This document shows, in pieces, positions 4,575-34,456 of a stretch of 45,430 bases of DNA. This DNA is from a virus (lineage: Duplodnaviria > Heunggongvirae > Uroviricota > Caudoviricetes): the IMG/VR virus record IMGVR_UViG_2920292642_000002, positions 83,431 through 128,860 of that record. One strand, 5' to 3'. Every line of letters starts with the position of its first letter. The stretch's first letter is position 1. The notes beneath the pieces were generated by a model. The model saw nothing but the letters and a program-made list of their open reading frames with translations. It did not search any database and had not been told where the DNA came from. A program made the position numbers and the translations under genes.

Positions 4575-4615
4575 GTCCAGAAACGCTTGACAGGCAGTTA
4601 AGGCTTTCTTACCGT
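4575..4615 (+). promoter_or_regulatory. sigma70-type promoter overlapped by the hybrid palindrome GTCCAG-N5-CTTGAC
   Basis: GTCCAG(4575-80) AAACG CTTGAC(4586-91); TTGACA-N17-TACCGT. Confidence 0.7.
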
Positions 4616-4636
4616 CAGGCAAATTGTGAGGGTGAA

Positions 4637-4840
4637 ATGTTCGCTTTCCTGACCAGACACCAGTACGGCCTCGCACTCGCCGCAGCCATCGTCGCCTTCT
4701 TCGTATTCGCCACGCCAAGCTCGACGGTGACCGGCGTCCTGCTGTTCCTCCTGCTCTTGGCGGTCGCGATCTTCGCCCTGCTCAAGCGGGCCGGTGGTGA
4801 TGACGACTGGTGGACGCCGGGTGGCCCGAGCCCACTCTGA
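4637..4840 (+). CDS. small two-TM membrane protein
   Basis: Two hydrophobic stretches; GAGGGTG SD before the ATG at 4637. Confidence 0.7.
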   Translation: MFAFLTRHQYGLALAAAIVAFFVFATPSSTVTGVLLFLLLLAVAIFALLKRAGGDDDWWTPGGPSPL

Positions 4841-4854
4841 TTTCCGAGGACCCT

Positions 4855-5682
4855 ATGAGCAAAGAGCCAATGGCTCCAGCCTATCTGGAGCACATCAACC
4901 ACCTCACCCGCACGACCATGTTCATGGAGAACACCCGCGTCATGCTGCGGCGATCTGCCGAGTTGCTGGAGAGGTCGAAGATTGCCCTCCCCGATGACGG
5001 CCAGCTTCGGGCCGAGATCGAGGCGGAGCTTGCCGCCCTGCGCAAGACCGGCATGATCCCGCACCCGGCACCTGACTGGTCGAAGCTTGCTTCTGGTGGA
5101 CCCGTGTCGCCGCCGCTGCGAACGCCTAAAGAGCCGGCCGTTGTCTCGAAGCCAACGGCTGCTGAGATCGTCAGCGTCATGATTTTTCGACTGCGCAGCG
5201 ACAAGCGGATGCCACACATTCCCAGCAACGATGGTTGGGACGATCTCCTGCCGCTGCGCGAGCGTTTTGCGGAAATCCTTGAGGCCGAGAGGAACAAGGC
5301 CGAGCAGGCGGTCATCAAATACACCCTACGGACGTATTTTGTCGGCCGCGTCACGGCTTCGATCACGCCGTGGGAGCGCGACAACTCGTTCTCCCACATC
5401 AGCGCGGGCTCGATCCATGAACTGGTGAGGTGGACCTTCTCCTCGGTTGCCGACTCCACCCAGCCCTATCCGATCGACGGCGGGTTGAAGGAGCAGGTCC
5501 GCGTGCCCGAGGCGGCGCAGTCGGCGTTCGAGACAGTACGGCGCGAACTGGAAGAGAAGGCCAAGCAACATATTGCCGAGGCCCAGCGCCGCGAGATGGA
5601 GCGTCGCGAGACGCTGCCGTTCGATCCGAACGCCAAGGGCGAGCCCTACACCGAGGCTGAGATTCGCGAGATGACTTCGTGA
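4855..5682 (+). CDS. hypothetical protein
   Basis: GAGGA SD before the ATG at 4855; 275 aa. Confidence 0.7.
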   Translation: MSKEPMAPAYLEHINHLTRTTMFMENTRVMLRRSAELLERSKIALPDDGQLRAEIEAELAALRKTGMIPHPAPDWSKLASGGPVSPPLRTPKEPAVVSKPTAAEIVSVMIFRLRSDKRMPHIPSNDGWDDLLPLRERFAEILEAERNKAEQAVIKYTLRTYFVGRVTASITPWERDNSFSHISAGSIHELVRWTFSSVADSTQPYPIDGGLKEQVRVPEAAQSAFETVRRELEEKAKQHIAEAQRREMERRETLPFDPNAKGEPYTEAEIREMTS

Positions 5683-6101
5683 AGCTCTGCACCCACCATC
5701 ACTATGGCTGGCGCTCGCACAGCGCCGGCATGGAGCCCTTCGACGAAGCGGCGCTGATGTCGGCTCTGCACTCAACCCACACTTTCCTCAAGCACTACGA
5801 AGGAAAGTACCGGGCCGAGATCGTGAAGACCCCGCAGTGCAACTTCGACGGACAAGTCATCGTCTACTGGGATAGCGACGAGGTCAAGCAGCTTGTCGGC
5901 CGCTCGTTTCTGAGCAAGGGCGACCACTGGTTCAAGGCCTTCAACTTCAACTTCGTCGACGACTTCGCCTGCCGGTACTGCGGCGGGACCGGCGTCGACC
6001 ATTACAACCCATTAGTCTTCTGCTGGAACTGCGACGGGACCAAGAAACAGGTCCGCACGACTCGGCCGCGAGACTACGAGCCGATCAGGAGGCCAGTGTG
6101 A
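5679..6101 (+). CDS. hypothetical protein with C-terminal CxxCxGxG...CxxCxG zinc-finger-like motif
   Basis: CRYCGGTG...CWNCDGT; GTGA overlaps. Confidence 0.7.
   Translation: MKLCTHHHYGWRSHSAGMEPFDEAALMSALHSTHTFLKHYEGKYRAEIVKTPQCNFDGQVIVYWDSDEVKQLVGRSFLSKGDHWFKAFNFNFVDDFACRYCGGTGVDHYNPLVFCWNCDGTKKQVRTTRPRDYEPIRRPV
5765..5778 (+). repeat. TCTGCACTCAACCC motif, copy 3
   Basis: Exact copy inside a CDS in a different frame (A-L-H-S-T-H). Confidence 0.9.
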
Positions 6102-6448
6102 CCACGTCCTTCGTCAACATCGTATTCGGTCCACCGAAGGTTGAGAACGGCGTTGTCGTCGTACCCTTCCGGATCAACCTCACGGACGACATCGCAGAGG
6201 GTCCGGTCGACGAAGTAATCACCGCGTCCAACGGATTCGCCCTGACGCTCCAGACGATTGCGAAAGGTCGTGACGCCATCCGCGACTGCGTCGAGGAATG
6301 CTTCGAGGAGCGCCGACATGATTGGGGTGCGATCACATTCAACCGCTACCGCGACGCCATGGTCGAGCACCTTACCACACTCGATCTCAGCAGATTTGCG
6401 GCTCCGCAATGGGCCTCGGCCCATCCTCAGCATCCAAGAGTGCAATGA
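6098..6448 (+). CDS. hypothetical protein
   Basis: GGAGG SD; coupled overlaps. Confidence 0.65.
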   Translation: MTTSFVNIVFGPPKVENGVVVVPFRINLTDDIAEGPVDEVITASNGFALTLQTIAKGRDAIRDCVEECFEERRHDWGAITFNRYRDAMVEHLTTLDLSRFAAPQWASAHPQHPRVQ

Positions 6449-6597
6449 TGTACGACGAAGTAGACCTCGACGAAGACGCGCTGCCGATGGCTCCGCCCGA
6501 CATCTGCGGATGTTGCGGCGATCCCCTGCCGCTCGATTGCGAATCTCCTTTTTGCGAGGAGTGTGAAGAAAATCTGGACAAACTCGATGCACATTGA
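6445..6597 (+). CDS. 50-aa acidic zinc-ribbon-like protein
   Basis: MMYDEVDLDEDALPMAPPDICGCCGDPLPLDCESPFCEECEENLDKLDAH; ATGA overlap. Confidence 0.6.
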   Translation: MMYDEVDLDEDALPMAPPDICGCCGDPLPLDCESPFCEECEENLDKLDAH

Positions 6598-6712
6598 TGT
6601 CCTGACCCTCCTCGAAGCGGCCGTCGTGGTGATCAGCCTATCGGCGATCGGCGTCTGCGGAGCCGTGGCGCTTCGCGAGCAGATGCGACGGGTGAATATC
6701 AAATGGACCTGA
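6587..6712 (+). CDS. 41-aa single-TM protein
   Basis: MHIDVLTLLEAAVVVISLSAIGVCGAVALREQMRRVNIKWT, translated by hand; fills the gap with overlaps. Confidence 0.55.
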   Translation: MHIDVLTLLEAAVVVISLSAIGVCGAVALREQMRRVNIKWT

Positions 6713-6834
6713 CGCATTGGGCAGTCTTCCTCGCGGCCGTCGCTTGGGCCGTGTGGGTGCGCCGGCTTTGGTTCTCGAAACCAGCCAAGGATGACCCACC
6801 GCAGTGGTGGATGATCAAGGGGACAATCCGATGA
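6703..6834 (+). CDS. 43-aa single-TM, Trp-rich protein
   Basis: MDLTHWAVFLAAVAWAVWVRRLWFSKPAKDDPPQWWMIKGTIR; ATGA overlap with the next gene. Confidence 0.55.
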   Translation: MDLTHWAVFLAAVAWAVWVRRLWFSKPAKDDPPQWWMIKGTIR

Positions 6835-7043
6835 CGTTCACACTTTCTATCGACTGGTGGCTGCTGCCGCTGGCTGCCTCGGTGGCGGTCTGGATTTGGT
6901 TCTTCGTGGCGACCGCTGGAGAGAACATGAGAGGGTACGGCGGAGACATCGTCGGCCTGATCTGCGGCGGATTGGCCGTCGTCATCACCCTCACGGTCTG
7001 GCTGCTCTACTGCATCTATCTGATGGTGTCCGGCAGCCCGTAA
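6831..7043 (+). CDS. two-TM membrane protein
   Basis: MTFTLSIDWWLLPLAASVAVWIWFF...GLICGGLAVVITLTVWLLYCIYL. Confidence 0.7.
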   Translation: MTFTLSIDWWLLPLAASVAVWIWFFVATAGENMRGYGGDIVGLICGGLAVVITLTVWLLYCIYLMVSGSP

Positions 7044-7049
7044 TCACAG

Positions 7050-14677: not shown

Positions 14678-15419
14678 AGCTGACAAGGAAGCGAGACGCC
14701 CCAAGCCGTTGGAGGCGAGAAACCTTCGGCAGAAGGAACTCATTCAGCAGCTTAACGCATTCCCGGTCGTCATTGCCTTGGGGCCGGCCGGCTCGGGAAA
14801 GACTTACGTAGGGGCGCGTCACGCCCTCGATCGACTGCTCCGCAAGACGATCGACCGGATCATCATCGCGAGACCTTCTGTGTCGGCTGCGCGGCACAGA
14901 ATGGGCTTCCTCCCCGGCGACGGGGACAAGAAGATGAAGCCTTGGCTTGTCCCGATCGTCGACGCCTTCAAGGAGGGAACCTCCGGAGCCGAGGTCGACA
15001 GGTTGACAGCCACGAAGCAGATCGAGGTCCTACCGTTCGAGCATATGCGTGGACGCACCGTCAAAGACGGCGTCTTCCTCCTCGATGAGGCGCAGAACTG
15101 TACGCTGGCCGATCTGGAAATGTTCCTGACCAGAATCGGCGACAATGCGCAGGCGATCATCTGCGGCGATCCCGACCAGTCCGACATCGGTCGCGACAGC
15201 GGCTTGCGAACCATCGCCGAGATGGTTTCCCGACACGGTCTGAACGCAGGCATCACTTTTTTCCGAGAGGAAGATGTGGTGCGCTCCGCGACGGCCAAGG
15301 AGTGGGTCATGGCGTTCGCGGCAGAGCGTTCTCACCTGAGCCCCGGTCCTGATTTTTCGGGCGATTGGCGTCCAGCGTTTCTGGACAAGGGAGTGGAAAA
15401 TGGTCGACCTTGTGGTTGA
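14607..15419 (+). CDS. phoH: PhoH-family ATPase
   Basis: Walker A GPAGSGKT; IIIARP; GFLPG; EHMRGRT; LLDEAQN; TRIG; GDPDQSD. Confidence 0.93.
   Translation: MELSDVFEAESPPTSKPSKREQRKADKEARRPKPLEARNLRQKELIQQLNAFPVVIALGPAGSGKTYVGARHALDRLLRKTIDRIIIARPSVSAARHRMGFLPGDGDKKMKPWLVPIVDAFKEGTSGAEVDRLTATKQIEVLPFEHMRGRTVKDGVFLLDEAQNCTLADLEMFLTRIGDNAQAIICGDPDQSDIGRDSGLRTIAEMVSRHGLNAGITFFREEDVVRSATAKEWVMAFAAERSHLSPGPDFSGDWRPAFLDKGVENGRPCG
15370..15386. promoter_or_regulatory. palindrome GTCCAG-N5-CTGGAC abutting the SD of the head-tail adaptor gene
   Basis: GTCCAG CGTTT CTGGAC immediately followed by AAGGGAG and the ATG at 15400. Confidence 0.65.
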
Positions 15420-16289: not shown

Positions 16290-16290
16290 C

Positions 16291-17174: not shown

Positions 17175-17199
17175 GGCGCTGCAATGTTTTGAGCCGTTT

Positions 17200-17240
17200 G
17201 TCAAGAATTTCTTGACGCCTTAGCCTGCTTTATCTATCAT
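17200..17240 (+). promoter_or_regulatory. palindrome plus sigma70-type promoter for the tail tube gene
   Basis: GTCAAG AATTT CTTGAC; TTGACG-N17-TATCAT. Confidence 0.8.
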
Positions 17241-19139: not shown

Positions 19140-19146
19140 TCTGGTT

Positions 19147-19163
19147 GTCCAGATTTTCTGGAC
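19147..19163. promoter_or_regulatory. palindrome GTCCAG-N5-CTGGAC after the tail tube gene
   Basis: TGTCCAG ATTTT CTGGACATCC; matches 11551-11572 at 20 of 22 nt. Confidence 0.7.
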
Positions 19164-20130: not shown

Positions 20131-23100
20131 GCGACAACTACAACATCAAGATTGGCGTCGACTCGCGCTCCGGCGCGCGCGGTGTCAAGCAATTCTCGTC
20201 GGCCCTCGGCGAAGCACTCCGTACGCTGCGCGAGTTCGACAAGCGCTCGCGCAGCGCCTTCGACGGTCTGAAGAAGCTCGCCTCCGTCAACATCCCAGAC
20301 ATCGCCAAGAAGACGAAAGCCGTCCAGAAGGCGATCGAGACGCTGAATCGCGTCCAGATCAATCGCCGGATGATCAACGATCTCCAGCGCCTCCAGAACG
20401 CGCTCGCCGGCTTCCGCTTCAACGCCAAGGCGATCTCGAAGGTGCCTGAGGCCCTGCGCGGACTGTCGAACCTGAAGATCGACACGTCCTTCGTCTCCAC
20501 TCTCAACCAGATCAAGGCAGCACTCAAGGGCTTCCGTGGCCCTCCGAAGGCGCTTGCGCAGTGGGCTGGCGCGTTCACTCCGTTCGCCAAGGTCAAGATC
20601 GATTCGACGCTCGCGCCGCGTCTGACCGCACTCAAGGCGGCGCTCAAGGGCTTCCCCGGCCTTCCCAAGGGGCTTGTAAACCTCCCGACATTCCTCCGTG
20701 GCATTTCCCGCAACCGAATCCCGCCTTCGGTGGCGCAGGGCATCGCGTCCCTGAAGACAGCACTCGCCGGCTTTGCCGGGCCGTCCGCTGCCGCAACCCG
20801 TAATCTGTCCGCCCTCGTCGCCGCTTTGGCTCGGGTCAGCCCCGGTCATCTCGCGCAGGTGGCGGCGGCGCTCGCGCGCCTCAACGGCCTGAACATCAAT
20901 GTCCGTGGCCTCGGCTCGATGAACAACGCCGCGCAGCGCGGCGCGGGCATCTGGACCAACATGGGCAATTCGATCCGGAACACGACCAACGCGTTCCGTG
21001 GTCTCAACAATCAAATCTCGCTGACCCATCACGCGTCGACGCTGCTCGCGACCGCGCTCGGATCAGTGTCGCTCGGCACCTTCGTCAACAGCGTCTACGA
21101 GGCCGGTAGCGCCCTCATCAACCTGAAGCGCACGATGGGTGCGATCGCCGGGACGCCGACCGAGGTCAACGACCATCTTTCCTTCCTGAAGGACCTCACC
21201 AACGAGCTTCCCGTCTCGCTGGACGCTGTCGCTCGCTCGTACGGTAAGTTTGCTGTCGCCGCGCGCCTGTCCGGTACGTCGGTCGCGGATACCCAGAAGG
21301 TCTACAAGGGCTTTGCGACCGCGCTGTCGGCCATGGGTGTCTCCGCCGACAACCAGAAGTACGCCTTCCTCGCCTTGGAGCAGATGTTCTCCAAGGGAAC
21401 CATCCAGATGGAAGAACTCCGCGTTCAGTTGGGTGACCACATCCCCGGCGTGGTGCCGATGCTGGCCGAGGCTCTGGATGTCTCGACCTCGAAGCTCCTG
21501 AAGATGATCGAGGCCGGTGAAGTTGGTTCGGACGCACTGATCAAGCTCGCCGAAGTCATGCAGAGCCGGTTCGGTCCGGCCGTTGCGGCGGCAATGAACA
21601 CGTCCGCAGCCCAGATCACATCGCTCCAGAACGCGTGGACCGAGTTCAAGCGTATCCTCTTCGACAGCGGCTTCAACGCTGGCCTCGGCGCGATGGCGCG
21701 TCAGTTCGCGGAAATTCTCCGATCGGATGACTTCAAGAAGTTCGCGGCCGACCTCGGCCGGGCGATGGGCGAGGCATTCAAGCTGATCGGCGCGCTCGGC
21801 AAGGTCCTTGCCGACAACCGCGACAAGGTCATCACGTTCGCCAAGGCGCTCGCAGGCGTCATGGTCGCCTATTCGATCGTCGGTGTTCTCCGTCTGTTGG
21901 TGGCCCCGCTGTCGGTGGTCGGCGGACTGTTCTCGTTTGCCGCGACCGCCGTGCGCCTGTTTGGCGGCGCACTCGCCCTGCTCGCGGGTGGTAAGGCGGT
22001 TGCCGCCGTTGCCAACATCGCCAAGTCGATCGGCGTCCTGACCGGTAAGGTCATGGCAGCGGTCGCCGCCTTTGGCTTGCTGGCGATCCTGTCCAACGAA
22101 ATCCTTGGCGACGGTAAGTTGGCCGCAAGCTTCGGCAACATGCTCGACGCCTTTGGCAAGCGCGTCGGCAAGATGATCGGCGAGATGACGGGCGGCGTCA
22201 CGGAGATGTTCGATCTCTCCGGCGTCGACGGCTTCAGCGAGTACATGAAGGAGGCGGACGAATACGCCAAGAAGATTCAGGACGCCAACCAGATCAACGC
22301 GGAAAGCATCGAGAAGAATGCCGAGCGTTACGCCAAGCTCGAAGAGCAGAAGAAGCGCGCACTTACCACCGAACAGCAGAAGCTGTGGGACGAAATCAAC
22401 GCGATCGGTAAGGCGAACGAGGAATATCAGAAGCAGTTGCTGCTCATCGACGAGATCGCGAAGAAGCGTGGTTTCGACCCGAAGAGTGCCGAGGTTGATC
22501 GGTGGCGCAAGATGCTCGCCGAGAACACGCTGGACGACCGCAACCCGGCCGGCGCGATGGCGCGCGACTACCGGCAGGAACTGGCCATGATGAAGGCCAA
22601 GACCGCCGAGCAGAAGGCCTTGGCGTCGGCGCAGGAGGATTACAACGAACTCCTGAAGAAGGGCCAGGATGTCGGCAAGGAGGGGCTGGAGGCCCTTCGC
22701 CAGTACCATGAGGGTATCGCCCGCATGAACGGTGAGATCGGCAACGGCGTCGAGCGCTGGGCCGCGTCCGTTGGCGACTTCAACGATCAGGTTCAGGAAG
22801 CAATCAAGGACGGCATCAGCAGCCTTTCCGACGAGATCACCAACTTCGTCACCGGAGCCGAGGCGGATTTCGCCAGCCTCGGCCGCTCGATCCTGAAGAC
22901 CTTCGTCAAGATCAGTCTCGACTCGATGCTGAAGGACATCGCTGGCTGGATGGGTATGGACGGCGAGAAGAAGGGCGCGTCCATGGCCGAGAAGGCGATG
23001 GAAAAGCTCGCCGGCATTGGTGAGAACATCACCACGGCGATGACCAACGTCTACACCAACGGTCTGACCATAAATGGCGAGCCGGTGACCGGCGCTGGTG

Positions 23101-24878
23101 GTGGCCCGAATGCCGGCATGTCGCTTGCCGAACAGTATGCGTCCTATGGCGCGGGCAAGGCCCAGTCGAATGCCGCGAAGCAGGCGGGCATCACTCGTGC
23201 GCCGCTGCCTGACATTCCGGGCACCAATGTCGCGCCGGCCGGACCGTCCACAAACGATCGTTTCGCGACCGAGCCGGGCTTCGTCAAGCCGATGAAGACG
23301 CTCAACGACGGCGTGCGGGAATTGGATCGCAGCCTCAAGTCCATGCCTGATGGATGGGGACCGGGCGGCATCATCGGCGCGAACACCACGGCGAAGACCA
23401 ACCGTGTCGGCTTTGTTGACCCCGAGCGCTTCGCGCCGGGCGTGAACCCCAACGCAAACCTCGGTCTGCGTGGCGCGATCGATCCTATCACCACGTCGGC
23501 ACTGCCGGCTGGTGGTGGCGTGTCGCCAACCATCAACGGCTTCACCTTCTCGAAGTTCTCGGAGGCGTCGTACCAGCAGATTTCCAACCAACTGATGGAC
23601 CGGTTGAAGCAGGACTTCAACCTGACCGACAATCAGGCTGGTGGCATCGTCGCGAACCTCGCGCACGAGTCCGTAGGCTTCCGCAAGTTGCAGGAAATGA
23701 AGCCGCTGGTTCCGGGCTCGCGTGGTGGTTATGGCATCGCGCAGTGGACCGGTCCGCGTCGTCGCGAGTATGAGGCTTTCGCAGCGCAGGGCGGCTGGAC
23801 GACCGATTCTCCCGAGGCTCAGTACCAGTTCCTCAAGCACGAGTTGATGGGCAAGGAGTCCCGTTCTCTGTCGCACCTGCGTCAGCAGTCCGGCTTGGGC
23901 GAGTCTGTCGTGTCGTTTCAGGACAAGTTCGAGCGGCCGGGCATCCCGCACACGGCAAGCCGTATGACGCACGCCGACCGGATCATGAACGGCTATCAGC
24001 CCGGCACAGGGTTGCAGCCGGGAGTTGACCCGACCGCGACGGCCGGCATCGATCAGATGAAGGCGAAGGTGACTGAGGTTGGACAGGCTGCGCAGCAGGC
24101 CACGCCGGCTATGGACCAGATGAAGTCCAAGCTGAGCGAGACCGGCACGTCGGCGCAGACCGGTGCGTCCCAGACGCAGATGGCCAACCAGATGAAGACC
24201 CAGTCCGAGTTGCAGATGGGCTTGACCGCTCAGCAGACCGGTATTCAGGTCCAGTCGGCGGGCACCATGGCGGCGTCGGCCGGTCCGCAGTTCCAGCAGG
24301 CAGGTACAGCGATCCAGCAGGCCGGTACGCAGGCGCAGATGGGCGCGCAGCAGGCACAGTCCGCAACGCCGGGCCTCGGCCAGTTCGGTCAGGGCATCTC
24401 GCAGCTTCTCGGCCCGCTGTCGTCGGTCATCCCCGGCCTCGGCCAGTTTGGCAGCATGATCTTGCAGCTTCTCCAGCAGTTGATGACTGGTGGTATGGGC
24501 GGCATGGGTGCTGGCCTCTTCTCCGAGGGTGGATACTCCGACTCGCCGGTCACTCGCGCCCGCGTCAGCGCGGCTCCGTTCATGGGTGCTCCGCATTACT
24601 CCGAGGGCACGCCGAACACGAGTGGTGGCATGCCAGCGATCCTGCACGACAATGAGGCGGTGATCCCTCTGACCCGTGGCCGCAAGGTCCCCGTCGAGAT
24701 GAACGAAGGCGATTCTTCGCGAGCCGGTCGTCAAGATTATCTTGACAGAAGTGGTCCACCGAATCTAACGTTCCACCTGCACGGTGTGAAGGACGCCGAC
24801 AGCTTCAAGAGATCGAAGAGCCAGATCGGCAACGCCATGACGACGGTGCAGCAGCGCTCGCGTATCCGCGACGGATAG
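20127..24878 (+). CDS. tape measure protein with phage tail lysozyme domain
   Basis: 1583 aa, Ala/Gly-rich. Tape-measure core (LEQMFSKGTIQMEELRVQLGDHIPG); lysozyme-like GIVANLAHES...GYGIAQWTGPRR...KFERPG (about 23620-23995); C-terminal GEVPAILH-like EAVIPL. Confidence 0.93.
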   Translation: MSDNYNIKIGVDSRSGARGVKQFSSALGEALRTLREFDKRSRSAFDGLKKLASVNIPDIAKKTKAVQKAIETLNRVQINRRMINDLQRLQNALAGFRFNAKAISKVPEALRGLSNLKIDTSFVSTLNQIKAALKGFRGPPKALAQWAGAFTPFAKVKIDSTLAPRLTALKAALKGFPGLPKGLVNLPTFLRGISRNRIPPSVAQGIASLKTALAGFAGPSAAATRNLSALVAALARVSPGHLAQVAAALARLNGLNINVRGLGSMNNAAQRGAGIWTNMGNSIRNTTNAFRGLNNQISLTHHASTLLATALGSVSLGTFVNSVYEAGSALINLKRTMGAIAGTPTEVNDHLSFLKDLTNELPVSLDAVARSYGKFAVAARLSGTSVADTQKVYKGFATALSAMGVSADNQKYAFLALEQMFSKGTIQMEELRVQLGDHIPGVVPMLAEALDVSTSKLLKMIEAGEVGSDALIKLAEVMQSRFGPAVAAAMNTSAAQITSLQNAWTEFKRILFDSGFNAGLGAMARQFAEILRSDDFKKFAADLGRAMGEAFKLIGALGKVLADNRDKVITFAKALAGVMVAYSIVGVLRLLVAPLSVVGGLFSFAATAVRLFGGALALLAGGKAVAAVANIAKSIGVLTGKVMAAVAAFGLLAILSNEILGDGKLAASFGNMLDAFGKRVGKMIGEMTGGVTEMFDLSGVDGFSEYMKEADEYAKKIQDANQINAESIEKNAERYAKLEEQKKRALTTEQQKLWDEINAIGKANEEYQKQLLLIDEIAKKRGFDPKSAEVDRWRKMLAENTLDDRNPAGAMARDYRQELAMMKAKTAEQKALASAQEDYNELLKKGQDVGKEGLEALRQYHEGIARMNGEIGNGVERWAASVGDFNDQVQEAIKDGISSLSDEITNFVTGAEADFASLGRSILKTFVKISLDSMLKDIAGWMGMDGEKKGASMAEKAMEKLAGIGENITTAMTNVYTNGLTINGEPVTGAGGGPNAGMSLAEQYASYGAGKAQSNAAKQAGITRAPLPDIPGTNVAPAGPSTNDRFATEPGFVKPMKTLNDGVRELDRSLKSMPDGWGPGGIIGANTTAKTNRVGFVDPERFAPGVNPNANLGLRGAIDPITTSALPAGGGVSPTINGFTFSKFSEASYQQISNQLMDRLKQDFNLTDNQAGGIVANLAHESVGFRKLQEMKPLVPGSRGGYGIAQWTGPRRREYEAFAAQGGWTTDSPEAQYQFLKHELMGKESRSLSHLRQQSGLGESVVSFQDKFERPGIPHTASRMTHADRIMNGYQPGTGLQPGVDPTATAGIDQMKAKVTEVGQAAQQATPAMDQMKSKLSETGTSAQTGASQTQMANQMKTQSELQMGLTAQQTGIQVQSAGTMAASAGPQFQQAGTAIQQAGTQAQMGAQQAQSATPGLGQFGQGISQLLGPLSSVIPGLGQFGSMILQLLQQLMTGGMGGMGAGLFSEGGYSDSPVTRARVSAAPFMGAPHYSEGTPNTSGGMPAILHDNEAVIPLTRGRKVPVEMNEGDSSRAGRQDYLDRSGPPNLTFHLHGVKDADSFKRSKSQIGNAMTTVQQRSRIRDG
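24730..24771 (+). promoter_or_regulatory. internal palindrome plus promoter inside the 3' end of the TMP gene
   Basis: GTCAAG ATTAT CTTGAC; TTGACA-N18-TAACGT, about 110 nt upstream of the distal tail gene. Confidence 0.65.
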
Positions 24879-24881
24879 TAA

Positions 24882-27157: not shown

Positions 27158-27566
27158 AGACGAGATAGTCGCGGCGGCGCGTGAATATTTGGGCGTTCCC
27201 TTCAAGAAGGCAGGTCGCGACAAGTTCGGCCTCGATTGCGTCGGCCTGATCATCTTGGCCGGCCGCAATTGCGGTCTCGAAATTTACGACACCACCAAGT
27301 ACACGATGGGTCCTCACCCGGAGTTGCTGCACGAATTTCTATACCCGCAGACCGAGCGACTTCCCGGCAACCGCCTCGTCCACGGCTCGATCGCAATCCT
27401 GCGGGATTCGATCTTCCCGATGCACACCGGGATCATCACCACGGACGGCAGCGAGCCGATGATCATCAATGCGAGCGCCAAGGCGCGTCGCGTGGTCGAG
27501 GAACCCTACAAAATCCACTGGGCAGCCAATCTGGTTGGCATGCGTGACTATAAAGGCATGATCTGA
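27141..27566 (+). CDS. NlpC/P60 tail-associated peptidase
   Basis: IVAAAREYLGVPF...GRDKFGLDCVGL (catalytic Cys); PMHTGI (His); GTG start at 27141. Confidence 0.9.
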   Translation: MTKPSRDEIVAAAREYLGVPFKKAGRDKFGLDCVGLIILAGRNCGLEIYDTTKYTMGPHPELLHEFLYPQTERLPGNRLVHGSIAILRDSIFPMHTGIITTDGSEPMIINASAKARRVVEEPYKIHWAANLVGMRDYKGMI

Positions 27567-30500
27567 ATGCAGCTTGGAGTTCTCTTCGGCGGTCAGCTTC
27601 TTGGCAGCGCGTTTGCCGGCAAGATGCTCATGTTTGGAGCATCGGTCGGCGCTTCGCTGCTGATGCGCCGCAAACAGGAGCCGCAGGGTAAGCTCAACGA
27701 AGTGCGTGTGTCGTCGTCCTCTTACGGACGCACGATCCCGAAGTGCTACGGAACCATCAAGGTCACCGGCAACCTGTTCTGGGCCACCGACTTCGAGGAG
27801 AAGAAGCGCTACATCGGCAAGAAGCAAAGCAGCAAGGGCGCGAGCAAGGGCAAGGCCGTCGAGGTCTACGACTACTACGCCAACTTTGCCATGGCACTGT
27901 GTGAGGGGCCAGTTGGACAGGTCCTGCGCGTCTGGGCCGACAACAACCTCATCTATGACAGGATGAACCCACTCAACCCGGACATTGTCGGTCAGGGTTT
28001 CACCAACCGAGGCCAGCGCGATCAAAAGGCGCAGGGCGGCAAGAAGGGTGGTGGAGAGTCCCACGGCCGCTTCGTTTTCCAATTCTACAACGGCTCTGAG
28101 AACCAGAAGCCAAACGGGTTCATGGTCTCCAAGCAGGGTGCCCAGAACGTTCCGGCGTTTCGGGGCTTGGCCTACCTCTGGTTCATGAAGTTCAAGCTCG
28201 GGGATTTCGGTAATCGCATTCCGACCATCACAGCCGAAATTTCCGTCCGTCCGGAAGTGACCCCGCATCTGCGCATCTTCCAGAACATGGAACCAAAGGC
28301 AAAGACCTCGTTCCGGACGATTTACAACAGGATCGGTTCTGGGCGGGTTGTGGCCGATCCCTTCTACGACCCTGTACGCAAGATGTTCTATCACGAGGCG
28401 ATCGACTCGACGGGACGGTATGTCATCCGAGGATTCAACGTCGACAAGGTCAAAGAGACCGTTCGCTTCTCCTATCAGAAGCCCGACGACAAGCCGTGGC
28501 TCCCGCAGGAGCAGTTGTCGATGTACGGTGATGCGATCACCCGCAACCGATTCAACTACGAGAATATCTGGCAATACTGTGGTGTTGCTGGAAACGGGAA
28601 CCTCGTCTTCACCACCAATCTAGGCCCGTATCCAAATCATAAGGCGATGATCTTCGTCAATCCGAGGTCGAAGGCCATCGAAGGTGTCTATGGCGGGACG
28701 ATCAGTACGCTGTTTCCACCGTACGGCGGTGGTGCGCGATTCCCCGTCTACCATGTTTCCAGTCAGCTAACGAGCCACGAAAACGTTCGAGCCAACAGCA
28801 CGTTCATCGCGGATCAGGAAGGCGTCATCCATGTCATGGATGCTCACGGAACGGGCTTCAACGTAGCCCTTCCGGCTGGATTCAACGCACCAAACTCCGT
28901 CCAGAAAGTGTCTGCCGGCGTTCCGGGGACCAATTACGGGATCATCATCCGCGAGAAGGGACTCTACACCCAGCGCGGACGCGTCTCGACGCTACTGCCC
29001 CGCATGATGACGGTAGGCAGCAAGTCGGATGATGCCACTCCGGACCTCCCCGAGGATCAGAAGGAGTACCCAGTGCAGGAGCCGGCTCGATTCCTGTTCG
29101 AGCTTCCCGGCTGGACCTCCAAGCGAGTCGATAGCGTCCTGTTTGCCGGCTACTGCGCTGCGGCCGATGCCATTGCCGTCCTCGCTACCACGACGGGTAA
29201 TGCGAATCTGGAAAAAGGCCTCTATGCCGCACTGGTACACGCCGATCAGGGTGCAGCGGCAGTCGATGGCACTGAAAACATAATCTATCTCAAGAAGATC
29301 ACTGACAACCAATTTCATTATCCGGAGGGTAACACCCATATGCCGGATTACCTCAGTGGCCCGGTGTACAGATGGATCGTTCCGAATAGTCGAACAGTAT
29401 ATTCGTGGGACTTTGTCGAGGGACGAGGAGACGTATATTCATATGGCACCAAGATGCCATTTTACGGCGATGATATTACGTACCAGTATTACTGGTCCGA
29501 ATATGACGCTGTCCTCTACTTTTCTGAGCAGTACGAGGAAGGTCGTTGGATTCTCGGGCAGTTCCAGAAGTACAACCAGACGGGCATCTCGCTCGCCGAC
29601 ATCGTCGAGGATGTCTGCCTGTCGGTGAACATCCCGAAGTCGCGACTCGATGTCGAACCACTGCGCAGCCAAGGCGTGCGCGGCTACATGATCGAATCCA
29701 CCCTGCAAGCAAGTCAGGTTCTGGAGGAACTTAGCTCGGTCTACATGTTCGACGTTGTCGAGAGCGACAACATCCTCAAATTCAAGTGGCGCGACACCCC
29801 GAGCGTCGTCACCATCCCGCAGTCGAAGCTTGGTGTTGTCGAGACCGACTTCGGCGGCGAGAACGAATACTACCAGATCACCCGCACTCAGGAGATTGAA
29901 CTGCCTGAACGCTGCGTGGTTCAGTACATGAACTCCAAGGAGGACTACGAGGCCGGCTCCGAGCACGCCAAGCGACCACTCCGGCCGCTGCCGGTTATGA
30001 ACTCTCGGGAATCACTCGATCTCACCCTGAACATGGCGCTTGAGCCTAAGGAGGCCAAGACCATGGCCCAGCGCATCCTCTATGCTGCGTGGGCGGAGCG
30101 TGGGCTGGGCGAGTTCGCCCTACCGCGTGACTATTTGTGGCTCGATCCGTCTGACGTGATCACCATCCATCTCGATAATGGTGAAGCCCTCTCCGAACGC
30201 ATCACCGACATCGAGATTGGTGCCAACCTGCAAATGGAGATCAAGACGGTCTCGCAGATCGAGGCTGTGTATTCGACGGTCGCGGATGTTGAACGACGCG
30301 GCGGCATCATCCCCTCCGAGAATACCGTTGCCCCGAACTGCGTGCCCGGCATCTTCAATCTGCCTTATTTGTTCGACGGTGATGCCAACTACGAGGACGG
30401 CACATTCGGGTACTATTGGGCGGCTCTGCCTTACGAAGCCGGATTCCGCGAAGGCATCCTCGTGGCGCGTAATCGCGACTCCTCCGAGGTCGAAGGCACT

Positions 30501-31346
30501 GCCTATGTGGAAGCTCTTTGGGGCTCGATCACCGGAATGGTGCCACCGCCTCCCGTGAGCACTGATGTCACCGACACACAAACCCAGATTACGTTGAAGC
30601 CGACCTATGAGTGGAATGAGCCCGACGTGATCTACACGTGGGACTCTATCCCTGACGACGAATGGCCGAACGACTCCAACATGGTGATCATCGGAGGCGA
30701 GGTCATCCTGTTCAAGAATGTCGTCGAACATGATGACGGATCGGCGACGATCTCGCACCTGATCCGAGGATATCGCGGGACGACCAATGCAGCCTACACG
30801 CATAGGCCGGGCGAGAATTTCGTGCTGGTTACTGCGGACGCGATGCGCATCGCTGATGAGCCGGTCGCCAAGGTTGGGGAAGTTCGCAATTACTCGGTCC
30901 TGTCGTCGGCTCAGATGACGATCGAGACGCCGGCAAACCTGAACGCCGCGTCTCGTCGACCGTGGCCGGTTGGTGGCGTAAAGCGCACCAACAACGTAGT
31001 CGACGACACGATCACAGTGACGTGGAAGCGTTCGACCCGCTTCGGCGGCACGCTGATGAACAGCACAGGCGCAGTCCCTCTCAATGAACAGGAAGAAGAA
31101 TACGAAGTCTTCCTTCTGAAGGCTCCGTTCGACCCGAACACCTTCAACCCTGAAAATGCAGCCATGTATTGGCACGCATCCGGACCCATCTCGACTCAGT
31201 CGTACACCTTTACAAAGGCTGCGTTGGCGGCTGCGGGACTTACGCACAAGTCCGATGTGCACGTCGTAATTTATCAGAACTCTCAGGCAGTCGGACGCGG
31301 CTTCGCACGCGGACTGTCACTCCGGTACTCGATGTTTGGAATTTGA
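27567..31346 (+). CDS. central tail fibre/baseplate hub (RcGTA gp15-like, Phage-tail_3)
   Basis: SSYGRTIPKCYGT..VTGNLFWA; PAFRGLAY...FGNRIP; VFDVVESD; ELPE.C.VQY; YLWLDPSDV; HLIRGYRGT; WKRSTR. Confidence 0.88.
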   Translation: MQLGVLFGGQLLGSAFAGKMLMFGASVGASLLMRRKQEPQGKLNEVRVSSSSYGRTIPKCYGTIKVTGNLFWATDFEEKKRYIGKKQSSKGASKGKAVEVYDYYANFAMALCEGPVGQVLRVWADNNLIYDRMNPLNPDIVGQGFTNRGQRDQKAQGGKKGGGESHGRFVFQFYNGSENQKPNGFMVSKQGAQNVPAFRGLAYLWFMKFKLGDFGNRIPTITAEISVRPEVTPHLRIFQNMEPKAKTSFRTIYNRIGSGRVVADPFYDPVRKMFYHEAIDSTGRYVIRGFNVDKVKETVRFSYQKPDDKPWLPQEQLSMYGDAITRNRFNYENIWQYCGVAGNGNLVFTTNLGPYPNHKAMIFVNPRSKAIEGVYGGTISTLFPPYGGGARFPVYHVSSQLTSHENVRANSTFIADQEGVIHVMDAHGTGFNVALPAGFNAPNSVQKVSAGVPGTNYGIIIREKGLYTQRGRVSTLLPRMMTVGSKSDDATPDLPEDQKEYPVQEPARFLFELPGWTSKRVDSVLFAGYCAAADAIAVLATTTGNANLEKGLYAALVHADQGAAAVDGTENIIYLKKITDNQFHYPEGNTHMPDYLSGPVYRWIVPNSRTVYSWDFVEGRGDVYSYGTKMPFYGDDITYQYYWSEYDAVLYFSEQYEEGRWILGQFQKYNQTGISLADIVEDVCLSVNIPKSRLDVEPLRSQGVRGYMIESTLQASQVLEELSSVYMFDVVESDNILKFKWRDTPSVVTIPQSKLGVVETDFGGENEYYQITRTQEIELPERCVVQYMNSKEDYEAGSEHAKRPLRPLPVMNSRESLDLTLNMALEPKEAKTMAQRILYAAWAERGLGEFALPRDYLWLDPSDVITIHLDNGEALSERITDIEIGANLQMEIKTVSQIEAVYSTVADVERRGGIIPSENTVAPNCVPGIFNLPYLFDGDANYEDGTFGYYWAALPYEAGFREGILVARNRDSSEVEGTAYVEALWGSITGMVPPPPVSTDVTDTQTQITLKPTYEWNEPDVIYTWDSIPDDEWPNDSNMVIIGGEVILFKNVVEHDDGSATISHLIRGYRGTTNAAYTHRPGENFVLVTADAMRIADEPVAKVGEVRNYSVLSSAQMTIETPANLNAASRRPWPVGGVKRTNNVVDDTITVTWKRSTRFGGTLMNSTGAVPLNEQEEEYEVFLLKAPFDPNTFNPENAAMYWHASGPISTQSYTFTKAALAAAGLTHKSDVHVVIYQNSQAVGRGFARGLSLRYSMFGI

Positions 31347-31348
31347 TC

Positions 31349-32977
31349 ATGGCGCTATCTCCTATCCTCGCGATCCCACTTTTGTCGGCCAACCAGTCGG
31401 CCAAGGAAGCTACCATCAATGACGCTATCAGCTTCCTTGAGCAGGCGAGTAACAGGGCGCGCGATCTCGACTTCGCGGCGGGCGACGTTGTGCTGCCGGT
31501 TCTGGACCTCCAGCGCTACTTCATGTTCCGGTGCAAGAACGTCACCGGTCTCCGCGCGCTGACGATCCCGGCGACATCGAGGGTTTTCGTCGTCGACAAT
31601 TCGACCGGGACCAACATGGTCAACGTCGTGCGCGGCGCGGCGACGCTACCGCTACCGACCGGAACGACGGCCGTGTTCTACGTCGACGGAAATTACCTCA
31701 TCTACCTCTACTTCTCAGACAATGGCGGCACGATTCCTTTCACGAGCCTGTCGGACACGCCGGTCAACTACTCCGGCATGAAGGGCCGCTTCATGCGGGT
31801 CAAAGACACTGAGGACGGGGTCGAGTTCGCGCCGGCCGGCGCGTCGATCTCGAATTTCACTGACCTTTCCGACACGCCCGTCGACTATACCGGAAGCGCC
31901 GGCATGGCGGTTCGCGTCAACGCGGCGGGGACAGCCCTGACGTTCACCAATGAGAGCGGAAGTCTCCGCGACCTCAACGACGTGCCGGATTCTTACGCAG
32001 GGGCAGCACACCAATACCTCCGGATCAAGGCGGATGAGACCGGGATCGAATTTGTGCCGTCCGGCGATCTGATCTCCATGTTCAGAGACCTCACCGACAC
32101 GCCAGTGACCTATGAAGGTTATGGTGGCTTTGTCGTGCGCGTGCGCGAAGATGAATCCGGTCTGGAGTTCGTGGCGGGCGGTGGAGGCATCACCGAGTTC
32201 ACGGAACTGACAGACGCTCCGAACAGCTTCACCGGCTTTGAGGGGGCGTACCTGCGGGTCAAGAATGACGGAACTGGGATCGAGTTTGTCTACTCCGGCG
32301 ACTCTCTGGAAGACTTCACCGATCTCGCGGACACGCCGGACACTTTGTCTGGGGCTGGCGGTATGGTCGTTCGGGTCAAGGAGGATGAATCCGGTCTGGA
32401 GTTTTACGGTCTGCCGACTGGAGGCGGAGGCGGCGCGGGGACCTTCCTCGAATTGGCCGACACGCCTGACAATTTCACAGACGCTGGTGGAAAGTCGGTC
32501 CGCGTCAAGGCGGATGCAACCGGTCTGGAGTTCTTTGACCAGCCGGCCAGCGGCGCGAAAACCTTCCTCGGACTGACCGACACGCCGGCAGACTACAGCG
32601 GTCAGGCTGGCAAGACGGTCCGGGTCAACAGCGCAGCCGATGGTCTCGAATTTTATAATCCATCGGGTCTGACGGTAACCACCAAGACGGCCAACTACAC
32701 CCTCGCGCTGCCCGACGCCTCTGGATACGTCCGCATGAACGTGGTCGCGACAAACACCCTGACCGTGCCGCCGAACTCGGTAGTAGCATTTCCAATCGGT
32801 ACGGCGATCCCGATCCGCCAGATCGGAGCAGGCCAGACCACGGTCGTGGCTGGGACCGGCGTCGTCGTTAATACGTCCGAGACCCTGAAGCTGCGCAAGC
32901 AGCATTCCGGCGCGACCCTCATCAAGGTCGCTACTGATGTGTGGGACTTGGTTGGTGATGTGGAGTTGCTGCCGTGA
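31349..32977 (+). CDS. side tail fibre: DUF2793-like N-terminus, 8 x ~38-aa repeats, C-terminal beta domain
   Basis: LAIPLLSANQSAKEATINDAISFLE; repeat F.xLxDTPxxYxGxxGxxxRVxxDxxGxEF; ATG at 31349. Confidence 0.85.
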   Translation: MALSPILAIPLLSANQSAKEATINDAISFLEQASNRARDLDFAAGDVVLPVLDLQRYFMFRCKNVTGLRALTIPATSRVFVVDNSTGTNMVNVVRGAATLPLPTGTTAVFYVDGNYLIYLYFSDNGGTIPFTSLSDTPVNYSGMKGRFMRVKDTEDGVEFAPAGASISNFTDLSDTPVDYTGSAGMAVRVNAAGTALTFTNESGSLRDLNDVPDSYAGAAHQYLRIKADETGIEFVPSGDLISMFRDLTDTPVTYEGYGGFVVRVREDESGLEFVAGGGGITEFTELTDAPNSFTGFEGAYLRVKNDGTGIEFVYSGDSLEDFTDLADTPDTLSGAGGMVVRVKEDESGLEFYGLPTGGGGGAGTFLELADTPDNFTDAGGKSVRVKADATGLEFFDQPASGAKTFLGLTDTPADYSGQAGKTVRVNSAADGLEFYNPSGLTVTTKTANYTLALPDASGYVRMNVVATNTLTVPPNSVVAFPIGTAIPIRQIGAGQTTVVAGTGVVVNTSETLKLRKQHSGATLIKVATDVWDLVGDVELLP

Positions 32978-34356
32978 TCCCTTATCCGATTCTGATGGGA
33001 GCCAGCGCGGCGGCAATCCTAGCCGCTGTCGCCGGCAAGGAAGCACCACCTGCTGGCGGGCCGCTGGGCATCTACGACCAGACCAGCGCAGTTTCTGACG
33101 TTGATGCTTCGACCATTGCCGTAGCGCGGCCGGAGCGCGTGGTGGCCGGTACGTTGATGGTGGCCTTTGTCGCCACTGGAGCGAGTATTTCCTCCGTCAC
33201 CCCGCCATCCGGTTGGGAGGTAGTTGTCAACCGGAAGGACGGGCGCTCCTACGGCGGGTGCTTTTATCGATACGCCACTGGTTCTGAGCCGAACTACTAC
33301 ACTTTTACATGTACCGGAGCGGCACAAATTAATGCCGTAGTTTTTGCCATCGGCGGCGCTGCGCTGACTTCGCCGATCAACGCGTTCGGAACTAATGGGG
33401 CTCCAGCCAATAATCCTACTCACGTCGTCCCGAGCCTTACTACCACTGTTGACGGCTGTCTCGTTCTCAGCGCAGCGATCGCAGGCTGGTCCGGCGTAAC
33501 CTACACCGATCCGGGCGGCGTCACGCGAATATTCTACCAGCGCCCTACTGGACCATCCGGTGGGCAGTCCAACGCTCTCGTGATATGCAAAGAGGAAAAG
33601 ACGACAGCAGGCGCGACTGGTACGCGGACGTACACCCCTAGCGAAGCCACCGAGTTTACGGCCTTTGGCATTGCAATTGCCCCCGGTAATTCTCCCATCG
33701 GCCCGGCGAAGTCGTTTCTCACGCCAGTCGTCGGCGCGATTTCAACGCTCAATCAGAATACGACCGGGACTACTGGCACCATCAATAAACCTGCTGGTGC
33801 TCAGGAAGGCGACCTTCTCGTGGCTCACATTAGCCTCGGGGTTTCCGCGACCGCTCTGGCTACGCCGTCCGGCTGGACATTGATAGATCAAGGCATCTAC
33901 GGTAGCGCGCGGTCGTTCCTTCTGTACAAGGTAGTGACGGCCTCGGAGCCGTCCAGCTATACATTCACGTGGACTGGCACGACGCGGTGCTGCGCGGCCA
34001 TCATGCAGGTGCTGAACGCCAACCCAAATAGGCCGATCCTACAGCACTCGCGCTATGGCGGACCAACGAACTCTAACCCTTTCATAGTCGGCGTTGGCGC
34101 GATCAATGGTGACAACAGACTGGTCCTCGCGATGGTTGATGGAGGTTGGGGAGGGCAGTCCATCACCACCGGGCCGTCTGGGTACACGAAGCTGTACGAC
34201 TTCGCGACGGCAACTGCAGGTGGTGACGGCGTGACGGCAGCCGCCTTTTCGCGTGTGTATAACAGCCCCGGTTTCGTCAACTCCCTGTCGATAGTACCTG
34301 TCACAGGACTCAACTACGCCGCCTTCAGTTTGGTCATTAACCCGAGAACGGAGTAG
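32974..34356 (+). CDS. putative receptor-binding/fibre-associated protein with duplicated domain
   Basis: Two copies of G.L.VA....  TPSGW..... Y......SEP..YTFT; GTGA-coupled to the fibre gene. Confidence 0.7.
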   Translation: MIPYPILMGASAAAILAAVAGKEAPPAGGPLGIYDQTSAVSDVDASTIAVARPERVVAGTLMVAFVATGASISSVTPPSGWEVVVNRKDGRSYGGCFYRYATGSEPNYYTFTCTGAAQINAVVFAIGGAALTSPINAFGTNGAPANNPTHVVPSLTTTVDGCLVLSAAIAGWSGVTYTDPGGVTRIFYQRPTGPSGGQSNALVICKEEKTTAGATGTRTYTPSEATEFTAFGIAIAPGNSPIGPAKSFLTPVVGAISTLNQNTTGTTGTINKPAGAQEGDLLVAHISLGVSATALATPSGWTLIDQGIYGSARSFLLYKVVTASEPSSYTFTWTGTTRCCAAIMQVLNANPNRPILQHSRYGGPTNSNPFIVGVGAINGDNRLVLAMVDGGWGGQSITTGPSGYTKLYDFATATAGGDGVTAAAFSRVYNSPGFVNSLSIVPVTGLNYAAFSLVINPRTE

Positions 34357-34414
34357 CCAGCACTTTATCGGGGTGAGCCACTGAGGATTTTTCGGGACTT
34401 TTCAGGCGATATGT

Positions 34415-34456
34415 GTCAAGATTTGCTTGACATATATCGACTGATTTTCTTTACAC
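34415..34456 (+). promoter_or_regulatory. palindrome plus promoter upstream of the endolysin gene
   Basis: TGTCAAG ATTTG CTTGACA; downstream TTTCTTTACAC resembles the TTTCTTTACCG -10 context at 1112-1122. Confidence 0.7.

Follow-up and report, generated by a model that had tools for sequence, protein, structure and literature searches.

A dispersed 17-bp palindrome as the probable operator of a CI-type repressor in a 129-kb rhizobial prophage

A 17-base palindrome, GTCMAG-N5-CTKGAC, recurs in a 45,430-nucleotide stretch of viral DNA (IMG/VR record IMGVR_UViG_2920292642_000002, positions 83,431 to 128,860), which is called the window here and to which all coordinates without a prefix refer. 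We conclude that this palindrome, with its A/T-rich centre, is probably the operator of a phage-encoded dimeric helix-turn-helix (HTH) repressor, most likely the CI-like protein encoded at 40293–40955. This reading is favoured because the half-sites are conserved around a free A/T-rich centre, because the sites are specific to the phage, because they are placed in variable register and merge with near-consensus hexamers of the core promoters, and because a published reporter assay bears on one site-carrying promoter. An earlier note on this DNA had proposed a phage-wide regulon site with two modes of use. The first of these, a DNA operator over promoters, is supported by the results below as the most likely function, and the second, a hairpin or cruciform at gene junctions, is not.

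Results

The palindrome is a phage-specific intergenic element

The window corresponds to C34:181040-226469 of a 6.1-Mb genome. It lies within a 128.8-kb element of lower GC content (C34:98194-227002) that is flanked by 46-bp direct repeats at C34:98194 and C34:226957. The drop in GC content coincides with the repeats, and an integrase gene is present at the right end. Because the lower-GC stretch is bounded by these repeats, the left of which is the 3' end of a tRNA-Arg(TCG) gene, the element is an integrated prophage. Its DNA is ~82% identical to that of Mesorhizobium phage Cp1R7A-A1 (portal-to-capsid stretch compared).

Eight exact copies of the palindrome are present in the window, compared with 0.03 expected from dinucleotide-preserving shuffles, and 12 copies are found when one mismatch is allowed (0.49 expected). 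All eight exact copies listed in the earlier note (4575, 10647, 11552, 15370, 17200, 19147, 24730 and 34415) were recovered, as were its one-mismatch copies at 6563, 8500 and 39628; a further one-mismatch copy at 35198 had been overlooked. The copies at 35198 and 39628 are intragenic, and the former, which has a GC-rich spacer, is probably a chance occurrence. Beyond the window, the exact motif occurs 16 times in the prophage as a whole and 22 times in Cp1R7A-A1, versus four times in the other ~6 Mb of the genome. A relaxed form of the motif (GT[C/A/T]MAG, an A/T-rich N5 and CT[G/T][G/T/A]AC, with at most one mismatch) yields 53 sites in the 128.8-kb prophage and 47 in the 131.4 kb of Cp1R7A-A1; the 5.98 Mb of host sequence has 32, a density of 0.7 per 129 kb.

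Exact sites are strongly concentrated between genes. In the prophage, 12 of 16 are intergenic, where the expected share of bases is 18% (p=1e-6), and the corresponding figures for Cp1R7A-A1 are 21 of 22 and 15% (p=1e-16). The word GTCCAGAA likewise ranks among the most over-represented intergenic 8-mers of both phages. The genes with a site ahead of them are the integrase gene, genes for structure and lysis, and members of the early array and of the replication and nucleotide-metabolism module. The palindrome had been described from the window as a mark of late-module gene starts, a description that proved too narrow given that most copies lie outside the window, ahead of early, replication, lysis and integrase genes.

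The right half-site resembles a common promoter element, and the left half distinguishes the phage sites from it. Only 3 of 2404 CTTGAC boxes in host DNA have GTCMAG-N5 directly upstream, compared with 13 of 44 such boxes between prophage genes and 21 of 50 between genes of Cp1R7A-A1. The rarity of the left half at host boxes indicates that host RNA polymerase has no need of it. The spacer between the half-sites is 84–89% A/T in a genome of 60% GC. In alignments with Cp1R7A-A1 the half-sites stand out as conserved islands, and the A/T-rich spacer and the flanks drift. The motif is not mentioned in the Lacusarx paper or the CtrA paper; an earlier description in the Cp1R7A-A1 genome paper (Gunathilake 2021) is possible.

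Sites merge with promoter hexamers in more than one register

Where the flanking genes are co-directional, the better half-site lies upstream in 29 cases and downstream in nine (p=0.002). The downstream half drifts toward promoter hexamers, and three arrangements can be distinguished. In register 1, the right half serves as the −35 box, and 16–18 nt separate it from a −10 hexamer. An independent consensus scan of the window found TTGACG-17-TATCAT at 17212 and TTGACG-18-TAACAT at 10659, which agrees with the earlier proposal that the right half of the A/T class doubles as a −35 box with a properly spaced −10. The sites at 24730, 34415 and 4575 are in the same register, as are six early promoters with CTTTAC-N16/17-CTATGG. 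In register 2, the site begins 3–6 nt past the −35 box and its last bases open the −10, so that the 17-bp dyad overlaps the spacer and −10 instead of the −35. The portal promoter (8490–8519, TGGACT-18-TACAAT), the integrase promoter and many promoters of early and replication genes carry such spacer-register sites, typical forms being CTTGAC-N6-GTCCAG-N5-CTAACA and CTTGCA-N3-GTCCAG-N5-CTT-TACATT. In register 3, the site abuts the ribosome-binding site at 11–14 nt from the ATG, where a separate promoter cannot fit; the site at 15370 and about ten others are of this kind.

Paralogous early promoters that have a common GTCAACGCAACGGAG leader carry the site in either of the first two registers. 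In register 1, ~30 nt separate the end of the site from the leader, and a CTATGG −10 lies in this gap; in register 2 the gap is 8–11 nt, and CTTGCA precedes the site by 3 nt. The two registers therefore lie 23 bp apart relative to one transcript start, a shift that suits a repressor and not an activator of fixed geometry. Furthermore, the core elements lie close to consensus (TTGACG-17-TATCAT, TTGACG-18-TAACAT and TGGACT-18-TACAAT), and promoters of this quality need negative control, not activation.

A published experiment is informative on this point. A 123-bp fragment carrying the Cp1R7AA1_019 promoter drove lacZ to a measurable level in Caulobacter crescentus, where phage proteins were absent, and this activity was only ~2-fold lower in a ctrA mutant (PMC9437464). 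We mapped the primers given in the supplement of that study to Cp1R7A-A1 5835–5957, and the fragment contains a register 2 site at 5868–5884. These findings indicate that a site-bearing promoter needs no phage activator.

Just left of the window, at C34:167257-177318, ~11 early promoters are arrayed 0.6–1.3 kb apart. Each has paired GTTAAC (CtrA-type) boxes together with the palindrome site and the GTCAACGCAACGGAG leader.

Sites and promoters in the window

The sites, promoters and candidate binder of the window are collected in Table 1. The gene positions that had been claimed for the sites hold when judged by our own gene map, the Cp1R7A-A1 annotation and Pfam.

Table 1. Palindrome sites, associated promoters and the candidate binder in the window
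Feature	Sequence	Position	Strand	Context
Exact site, mixed C/T	GTCCAGAAACGCTTGAC	4575..4591	+	Right half is a −35-like CTTGAC; 45 nt to small gene at 4637
Degenerate second site	GTTAAGGCTTTCTTACC	4597..4613	+	5 nt past −35 of the 4575 promoter; spacer/−10 register; weaker
One-mismatch site	GTGAAGAAAATCTGGAC	6563..6579	+	Small-gene gap; without clear core promoter
Site in portal promoter	GTCAAGAATATCTTTAC	8500..8516	+	Within spacer and −10 of portal promoter (consensus scan: TGGACT 8490–8495, 18 nt, TACAAT 8514–8519); 35 nt to portal gene
Late promoter: upstream element, exact A/T site (10647)	TTTTTGAGCCGTT, GTCAAGAAAAACTTGAC	10634..10663	+	Right half is −35, then 18 nt and TAACAT 10683–10688; 98 nt from site to scaffold-position gene
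Exact C/G site	GTCCAGAATTACTGGAC	11552..11568	+	16 nt past scaffold stop codon; 159 nt to major capsid protein (MCP) gene; without −10
Exact C/G site	GTCCAGCGTTTCTGGAC	15370..15386	+	Abuts AAGGGAG; 13 nt to DnaT_2-family head-completion gene (ATG at 15400)
Late promoter: upstream element, exact A/T site (17200)	TTTTGAGCCGTTT, GTCAAGAATTTCTTGAC	17187..17240	+	TTGACG at 17212, 17 nt, TATCAT 17235–17240 (10/12 consensus matches); 87 nt from site to tail tube gene
Exact C/G site	GTCCAGATTTTCTGGAC	19147..19163	+	7 nt past tail-tube stop codon; 113 nt to chaperone gene; without −10
Exact A/T site	GTCAAGATTATCTTGAC	24730..24746	+	Inside tape-measure 3' end; TTGACA, 18 nt, TAACGT downstream; 135 nt to DUF2460 distal-tail gene
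Exact A/T site	GTCAAGATTTGCTTGAC	34415..34431	+	37 nt to endolysin gene (Amidase_2 and SH3)
One-mismatch copy	GTCCAGAAAAACTTGGC	39628..39644	+	Within gene 39535–39909; membership doubtful
Repressor-gene promoter	CTTGAC, 17 nt, CTAACT	40218..40246	+	Degenerate site only, GTAAAG-CCGTT-CTAACT, in spacer
Candidate binder, 220-aa CI-type repressor		40293..40955	+	N-terminal XRE HTH, C-terminal LexA/S24-like domain

Comparisons at individual junctions show how the sites have changed. The Cp1R7A-A1 ortholog of the site at 8500 is GTCCAGAATACCTAACA, and that of the endolysin site at 34415 is GTCAAGATTTGCTGGAC, which differs by a single-sided change from CTTGAC to CTGGAC. The late promoter with the 10647 site is a conserved island in Cp1R7A-A1 and in the relatives L020, L005 and L006. 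The counterpart of the 19147 site in Cp1R7A-A1 is also of the C/G class, that of the 15370 site (at 121180) is a mixed site 86 nt from the gene, and at the junction corresponding to 24730 the site is placed elsewhere, 12 nt from the ATG. The pre-MCP copy at 11552 is kept in Cp1R7A-A1 (125028–125044), where its half-sites are intact and its spacer is inverted, is displaced in L020, and is absent from L005 and L006.

The two variable positions do not co-vary

The earlier note had emphasised compensatory half-sites, on the grounds that seven of the eight exact copies in the window are perfectly symmetric at the variable position. This count is correct, but the co-variation drawn from it disappears when more sites are pooled. 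Among the 37 exact sites of the prophage and Cp1R7A-A1 that could be oriented by a downstream gene, 11 are A/T, six are C/G, 15 are C/T and five are A/G, and the two variable positions show no association (Fisher p=1.0; 20 sites are mixed). Even the split within the window (4/3/1/0) is not significant (Fisher p=0.14). When folded as RNA, perfect copies reach −7 to −12 kcal/mol and the 20 mixed copies only −2 to −5 kcal/mol, and the mixed sites occupy the same kinds of junction as the symmetric ones. A scan of the window against Rfam at the gathering threshold gave no match. Because the variable positions do not co-vary, a conserved hairpin is unsupported, and the same is true of a separate hairpin or cruciform mode for the C/G class, given the weak folding and shared junctions of mixed sites, the mixed counterpart of 15370 in Cp1R7A-A1 and the loss of the pre-MCP copy among relatives.

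Two further observations concern the region ahead of the MCP gene. The spacer of the 11552 site (AATTA) and that of its Cp1R7A-A1 ortholog (TAATT) are exact reverse complements, a pair that would match the product expected from inversion of a small loop between inverted arms. In addition, the MCP 5' leader (11569–11727) contains two strongly conserved hairpins, GCCCGC..GCGGGC around CACCACGGGGTGGAGC and CTCCGG-N9-CCGGAG, which are kept in five phages (including Cp1R7A-A1, L020, L005 and L006) with drifting flanks. These hairpins have no Rfam match and are a candidate RNA element for MCP expression.

A CI-type protein is a good candidate for the binder

The CI-like protein encoded at 40293–40955, which had been named as one of two possible binders, is a good candidate. 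It is the only HTH_3 or XRE-type HTH protein of the prophage and matches Pfam families HTH_3 and HTH_31. The best sequence match of its DNA-binding domain in the PDB is P22 c2 (E=5e-7), to which it can be superimposed with a root-mean-square deviation of 1.0 Å (PDB 2r1j, 3jxb). An AlphaFold model of the protein (predicted local distance difference test score, pLDDT, of 88.8) has full-length 186 CI, lambda CI and LexA as its top Foldseek matches. By domain, the nearest structures are P22 c2 for the N-terminal part and 186 CI for the C-terminal LexA/S24-like beta domain. The modelled protein thus has the two-domain architecture of CI/c2-type repressors, in which an XRE HTH is joined to a LexA/S24-like oligomerisation domain. 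The P22 c2 operator, ATTTAAG-ATAT-CTTAAAT, has TTAAG half-sites that are spaced by one helical turn and flank an A/T-rich centre not contacted by the protein (PMC5175364), and it resembles the GT(C/T)AAG-N5-CTT(G/A)AC of prophage sites. We infer from this combination that the protein binds the sites and that its binding represses.

The Cp1R7A-A1 ortholog is 64% identical overall and keeps the recognition helix, SRSA(I/V)GQWELGN. Single-sequence patterns found no CI-like relatives in IMG/VR, and a word-indexed protein search returned only the Cp1R7A-A1 ortholog and a fragment. An exhaustive profile search recovered a family of ~220-aa relatives whose alignment conserves SRSA..QWE.G. A contig encoding a homolog of 40% identity has GTNNAG-N5-NTTGAC before four of its intergenic promoters.

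Two regulatory properties can be predicted for this protein. In an alignment of 27 sequences, no conserved Ser or Lys occupies the positions expected for the Ser-Lys dyad of RecA-stimulated self-cleavage. Because this dyad is absent and the C-terminal domain is nearest to the non-cleaving 186 CI, induction, if any, would need to proceed via an antirepressor. The promoter of the repressor gene has a degenerate site only, and therefore weak or no self-repression is expected.

Other possible regulators were also considered. The second protein previously put forward as an HTH binder (320–664) has only a sub-threshold match to HTH_31. No phage sigma factor was detected in the prophage with Sigma70_r2, although very divergent sigma-like proteins could escape this search. 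Cp1R7AA1_042 (Cp1R7A-A1 21527–21976), annotated as a transcriptional regulator, appears by eye, without a family search, to be a MucR/Ros-type zinc-finger protein, and a register 2 palindrome site lies 34 nt upstream of it. It was rejected as the binder because the prophage has the motif but no copy of this gene.

Two more genes of the window are worth noting. One (7256–7516) encodes a GapR-like DNA-binding protein (PF10073, E=8e-34), whose Caulobacter homolog is a nucleoid protein with affinity for overtwisted A/T-rich DNA. A WYL-domain protein is encoded at 43867–44487 on the minus strand, among small leftward genes between the repressor and integrase genes. Because WYL domains act as ligand sensors in the regulation of many defence and SOS-like circuits, this protein is a possible induction-side partner.

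Late promoters share a 55-bp module

The late version of the promoter is a 55-bp module, TTTTGAGCCGTT-GTCAAG-N5-CTTGAC-N17-TAYCATTC, that is conserved as an island in Cp1R7A-A1 and three metagenomic relatives (MCP identity 76–79%). The left half is conserved in these related phages; its loss there, which the earlier note had set as one of the outcomes that would reduce the A/T class to ordinary −35 boxes, was not seen.

The conserved element (T)TTTGAGCCGTT lies 0–2 nt upstream of many sites, including those of all late promoters and some others. It is present in the window at 10634–10646, 17187–17199 and 8466–8478, and also in Cp1R7A-A1, L020, L005, L006 and L093. Possible roles are those of an UP-like element, an overlapping −35 or a binding site for a second factor. 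An interpretation of TTTTGAGCCGTT as the 3' half of a terminator was rejected, as it fits the Cp1R7A-A1 pre-portal copy only and not the others. A second phage-specific word, GTTCCTAAC, occurs six times in the prophage (4552–4560 and 40106–40114 in the window; C34:116296, 122292, 122306 and 150600) compared with five occurrences in the 6 Mb of the host. A run of T and then a CTTGAC −35 box usually come after it, and the repressor gene has two copies upstream. Another regulator may bind this word.

Discussion

A proposed repressor operator merged with promoter hexamers

In the circuit that we propose, about 50 operators are scattered through the 129-kb prophage, and few recognisable phage promoters lack one. 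The upstream half-site (GTCCAG or GTCAAG) would be free of other constraints, and the downstream half-site coincides with a promoter hexamer. This hexamer is the −35 box CTTGAC in one register, as in the late promoters at 10647, 17200, 24730 and 34415. In the spacer register the site fills the spacer and its last bases start the −10 (CTTTAC, CTGTAC, CTTAAC or CTAACA), as at 8500, the integrase promoter and many early promoters. Because half-site and hexamer are merged, repressor and sigma-70 would compete for a shared set of bases, and a bound repressor would close the promoter and in this way keep the prophage silent. The symmetric GTCCAG..CTGGAC copies that lack a −10 (11552 and 19147) or lie against a ribosome-binding site (15370) would serve inside operons purely as operators. 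They may be roadblocks or may anchor cooperative binding; a weak internal promoter is a further possibility at these three sites. A more detailed scheme can be drawn, in which a dimeric CI-type repressor at ~50 operators combines promoter occlusion with stoperator-like roadblocks (post-scaffold, post-tail-tube and ahead of ribosome-binding sites), and the A/C choice sets affinity and the order in which gene classes are released. We regard this full scheme as speculative and doubtful in its entirety.

Several observations weigh against the repressor reading. Distant homologs of the CI-like protein (29–31% identity) are encoded in two complete motif-free genomes, G001 and Lacusarx, so that presence of the family does not predict the site; a de novo search for a replacement palindrome in these two relatives found nothing recurrent. 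The repressor gene sits after the lysis genes and not in a classical divergent immunity region, and Cp1R7A-A1 was grouped with Lacusarx and phiCbK-like phages and described as probably virulent (PMC9437464). The −10 hexamers were assigned from consensus alone, and chance fairly often places a TA at a suitable distance; a look-up of public sequencing runs for positions 34001–44000 listed none, and no holder of RNA data. For the Cp1R7AA1_019 reporter, the absolute level relative to the empty vector is not stated in PMC9437464. Lastly, late promoters have the extra conserved upstream element TTTTGAGCCGTT, and exact sites there are mostly GTCAAG (seven A to three C) when those elsewhere are mostly GTCCAG (four A to 12 C), according to a hand tally. 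The late-class combination of TTTTGAGCCGTT and GTCAAG may point to a second factor or to a function specific to this class, and the class preference between GTCAAG and GTCCAG could reflect graded affinity or a second factor.

These late-class features are also among the arguments for a different reading, in which the palindrome, at least in the class TTTTGAGCCGTT-GTCAAG-N5-CTTGAC-N17-TAYCATTC, is the site of a phage-encoded class II-type activator that recruits host RNA polymerase. Precedents for class II-type activation include CRP/FNR at −41.5, Mu Mor/C and P1 Lpa, and lambda CI itself activates PRM from about −42. The centre of a site in the −35 register falls near −39 to −41, as for such activators, and the late module is well defined and conserved over its 55 bp in five phages, left half and upstream element included, with its own preference for GTCAAG. 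However, the same site is used in a second register 23 bp away and flush with ribosome-binding sites, and the half-site and the −35 hexamer share the same six bases. Moreover, with a consensus CTTGAC as −35 and TAYCAT 17–18 nt downstream no activator is needed, and a site-bearing Cp1R7A-A1 promoter works in Caulobacter without phage proteins. We consider an activator unlikely. Less probable still is the view that there is no dedicated factor at all, and that the 17-mer is an extended, phage-optimised sigma-70 promoter made of back-to-back −35 boxes with an UP-like spacer and spread by duplication of modules. This would account for a right half equal to the alphaproteobacterial −35 consensus CTTGAC, for a spacer as A/T-rich as a proximal UP subsite, for the polarity of the sites with respect to transcription (29 versus nine, p=0.002), and for early promoters that are clearly paralogous modules. 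It does not account for a left half that is missing from host promoters (3/2404), or for a left half and spacer that are equally conserved within −35/−10 spacers, where RNA polymerase reads no sequence. Fully symmetric copies without a −10 also exist (11552, 19147 and 15370), and orthologous sites retain both half-sites as their flanks drift.

We find it very improbable that the site, even in its C/G class alone, functions as a nucleic-acid structure, whether a DNA cruciform or an RNA hairpin at junctions that governs processing, stability or translation. The folding energies of perfect copies, the positions of 11552 and 19147 just past the stop codons of highly expressed genes and of 15370 just 5' of a ribosome-binding site, and the reverse-complementary spacers at 11552, which resemble a hairpin-loop inversion, speak for such a function. 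However, a central mismatch in 20 of the 37 oriented exact sites leaves only weak folding, the variable positions do not co-vary, and orthologous sites differ by single-sided changes (T to G at 34415; 15370 compared with 121180). There is also no U-tract and no Rfam match, and the pre-MCP copy is not kept in L005 and L006 though the leader hairpins are.

Comparison with known systems

A close parallel to the proposed repressor operator is found in Cluster A mycobacteriophages (L5 gp71 and relatives), whose operators and stoperators have been described (PMC9283540, PMC6550527). There, too, dozens of dispersed sites for one immunity repressor lie mostly in short intergenic gaps, are oriented with transcription, and are found partly at promoters and partly inside operons. 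Dispersal of the stoperator type is seen here in the 53 sites, in the intergenic location of exact sites (12/16 and 21/22) and in the upstream position of the better half (29 versus nine). The systems differ in that Cluster A sites are 13–14 bp and asymmetric and are bound by a monomer with two DNA-binding domains, whereas the prophage has a 17-bp dyad and a dimeric CI-type candidate. A block to elongation is a feature of Cluster A stoperators and is only proposed for the prophage sites. Phage P1 is likewise a large temperate phage silenced by one repressor, C1, at many scattered, promoter-overlapping operators, but these are asymmetric 17-mers and C1 is not known to be of the XRE/S24 type, unlike the dyad and the candidate described here.

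P22 c2 and the lambdoid repressors resemble the candidate in their homologous DNA-binding domain, in dyad length (17 bp here, 18 bp in P22), in xxAAG half-sites one helical turn apart around an A/T-rich centre, and in overlap with a −35 or −10. However, the roughly six operators of a lambdoid phage form two clusters next to the repressor gene, whereas the prophage has ~50 single operators across all gene classes. The P22 spacer is 4 bp rather than 5 bp, and the candidate lacks the Ser-Lys cleavage dyad, as does 186 CI. Late promoters dependent on P1 Lpa or Mu Mor/C also have a dyad element at a fixed place, but they have a poor −35 and depend on the activator, in contrast to the near-consensus core promoters and multiple registers of the prophage. 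Finally, Cluster O mycobacteriophages carry a 17-bp dyad, TGTTCGG-N3-CCGAACA, in more than 30 copies per genome, whose function and binder are unknown (PMC4351075). As in the prophage, these dyads lie between genes or near gene 5' ends, and the phages also have prolate heads; the differences are invariant half-sites, no polarity, no merger with promoter hexamers, and another sequence and host.

Implications

Genome-wide dispersal of repressor sites is thus already known from Cluster A mycobacteriophages and P1. What is particular here is the ~50-site scale, the CI/P22-type dimeric candidate, the two promoter registers, and their occurrence in a 129-kb phiCbK-related temperate rhizobial phage. 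To our knowledge, gene control in the group of phiCbK, Lacusarx and Cp1R7A-A1 is known only through host CtrA sites. The natural variation among the sites shows how one operator can be merged with either a −35 or a −10 hexamer, and the sites indicate where promoters are likely to lie in a 129-kb genome whose genes mostly have no known function. The site and the protein could also serve as a repressible promoter set for rhizobia. This phage group has so far been treated as probably virulent, and one of its members is an integrated prophage. For that member, the proposed operator would make the silencing circuit concrete: one CI-type protein, one 17-bp site and ~50 promoters.

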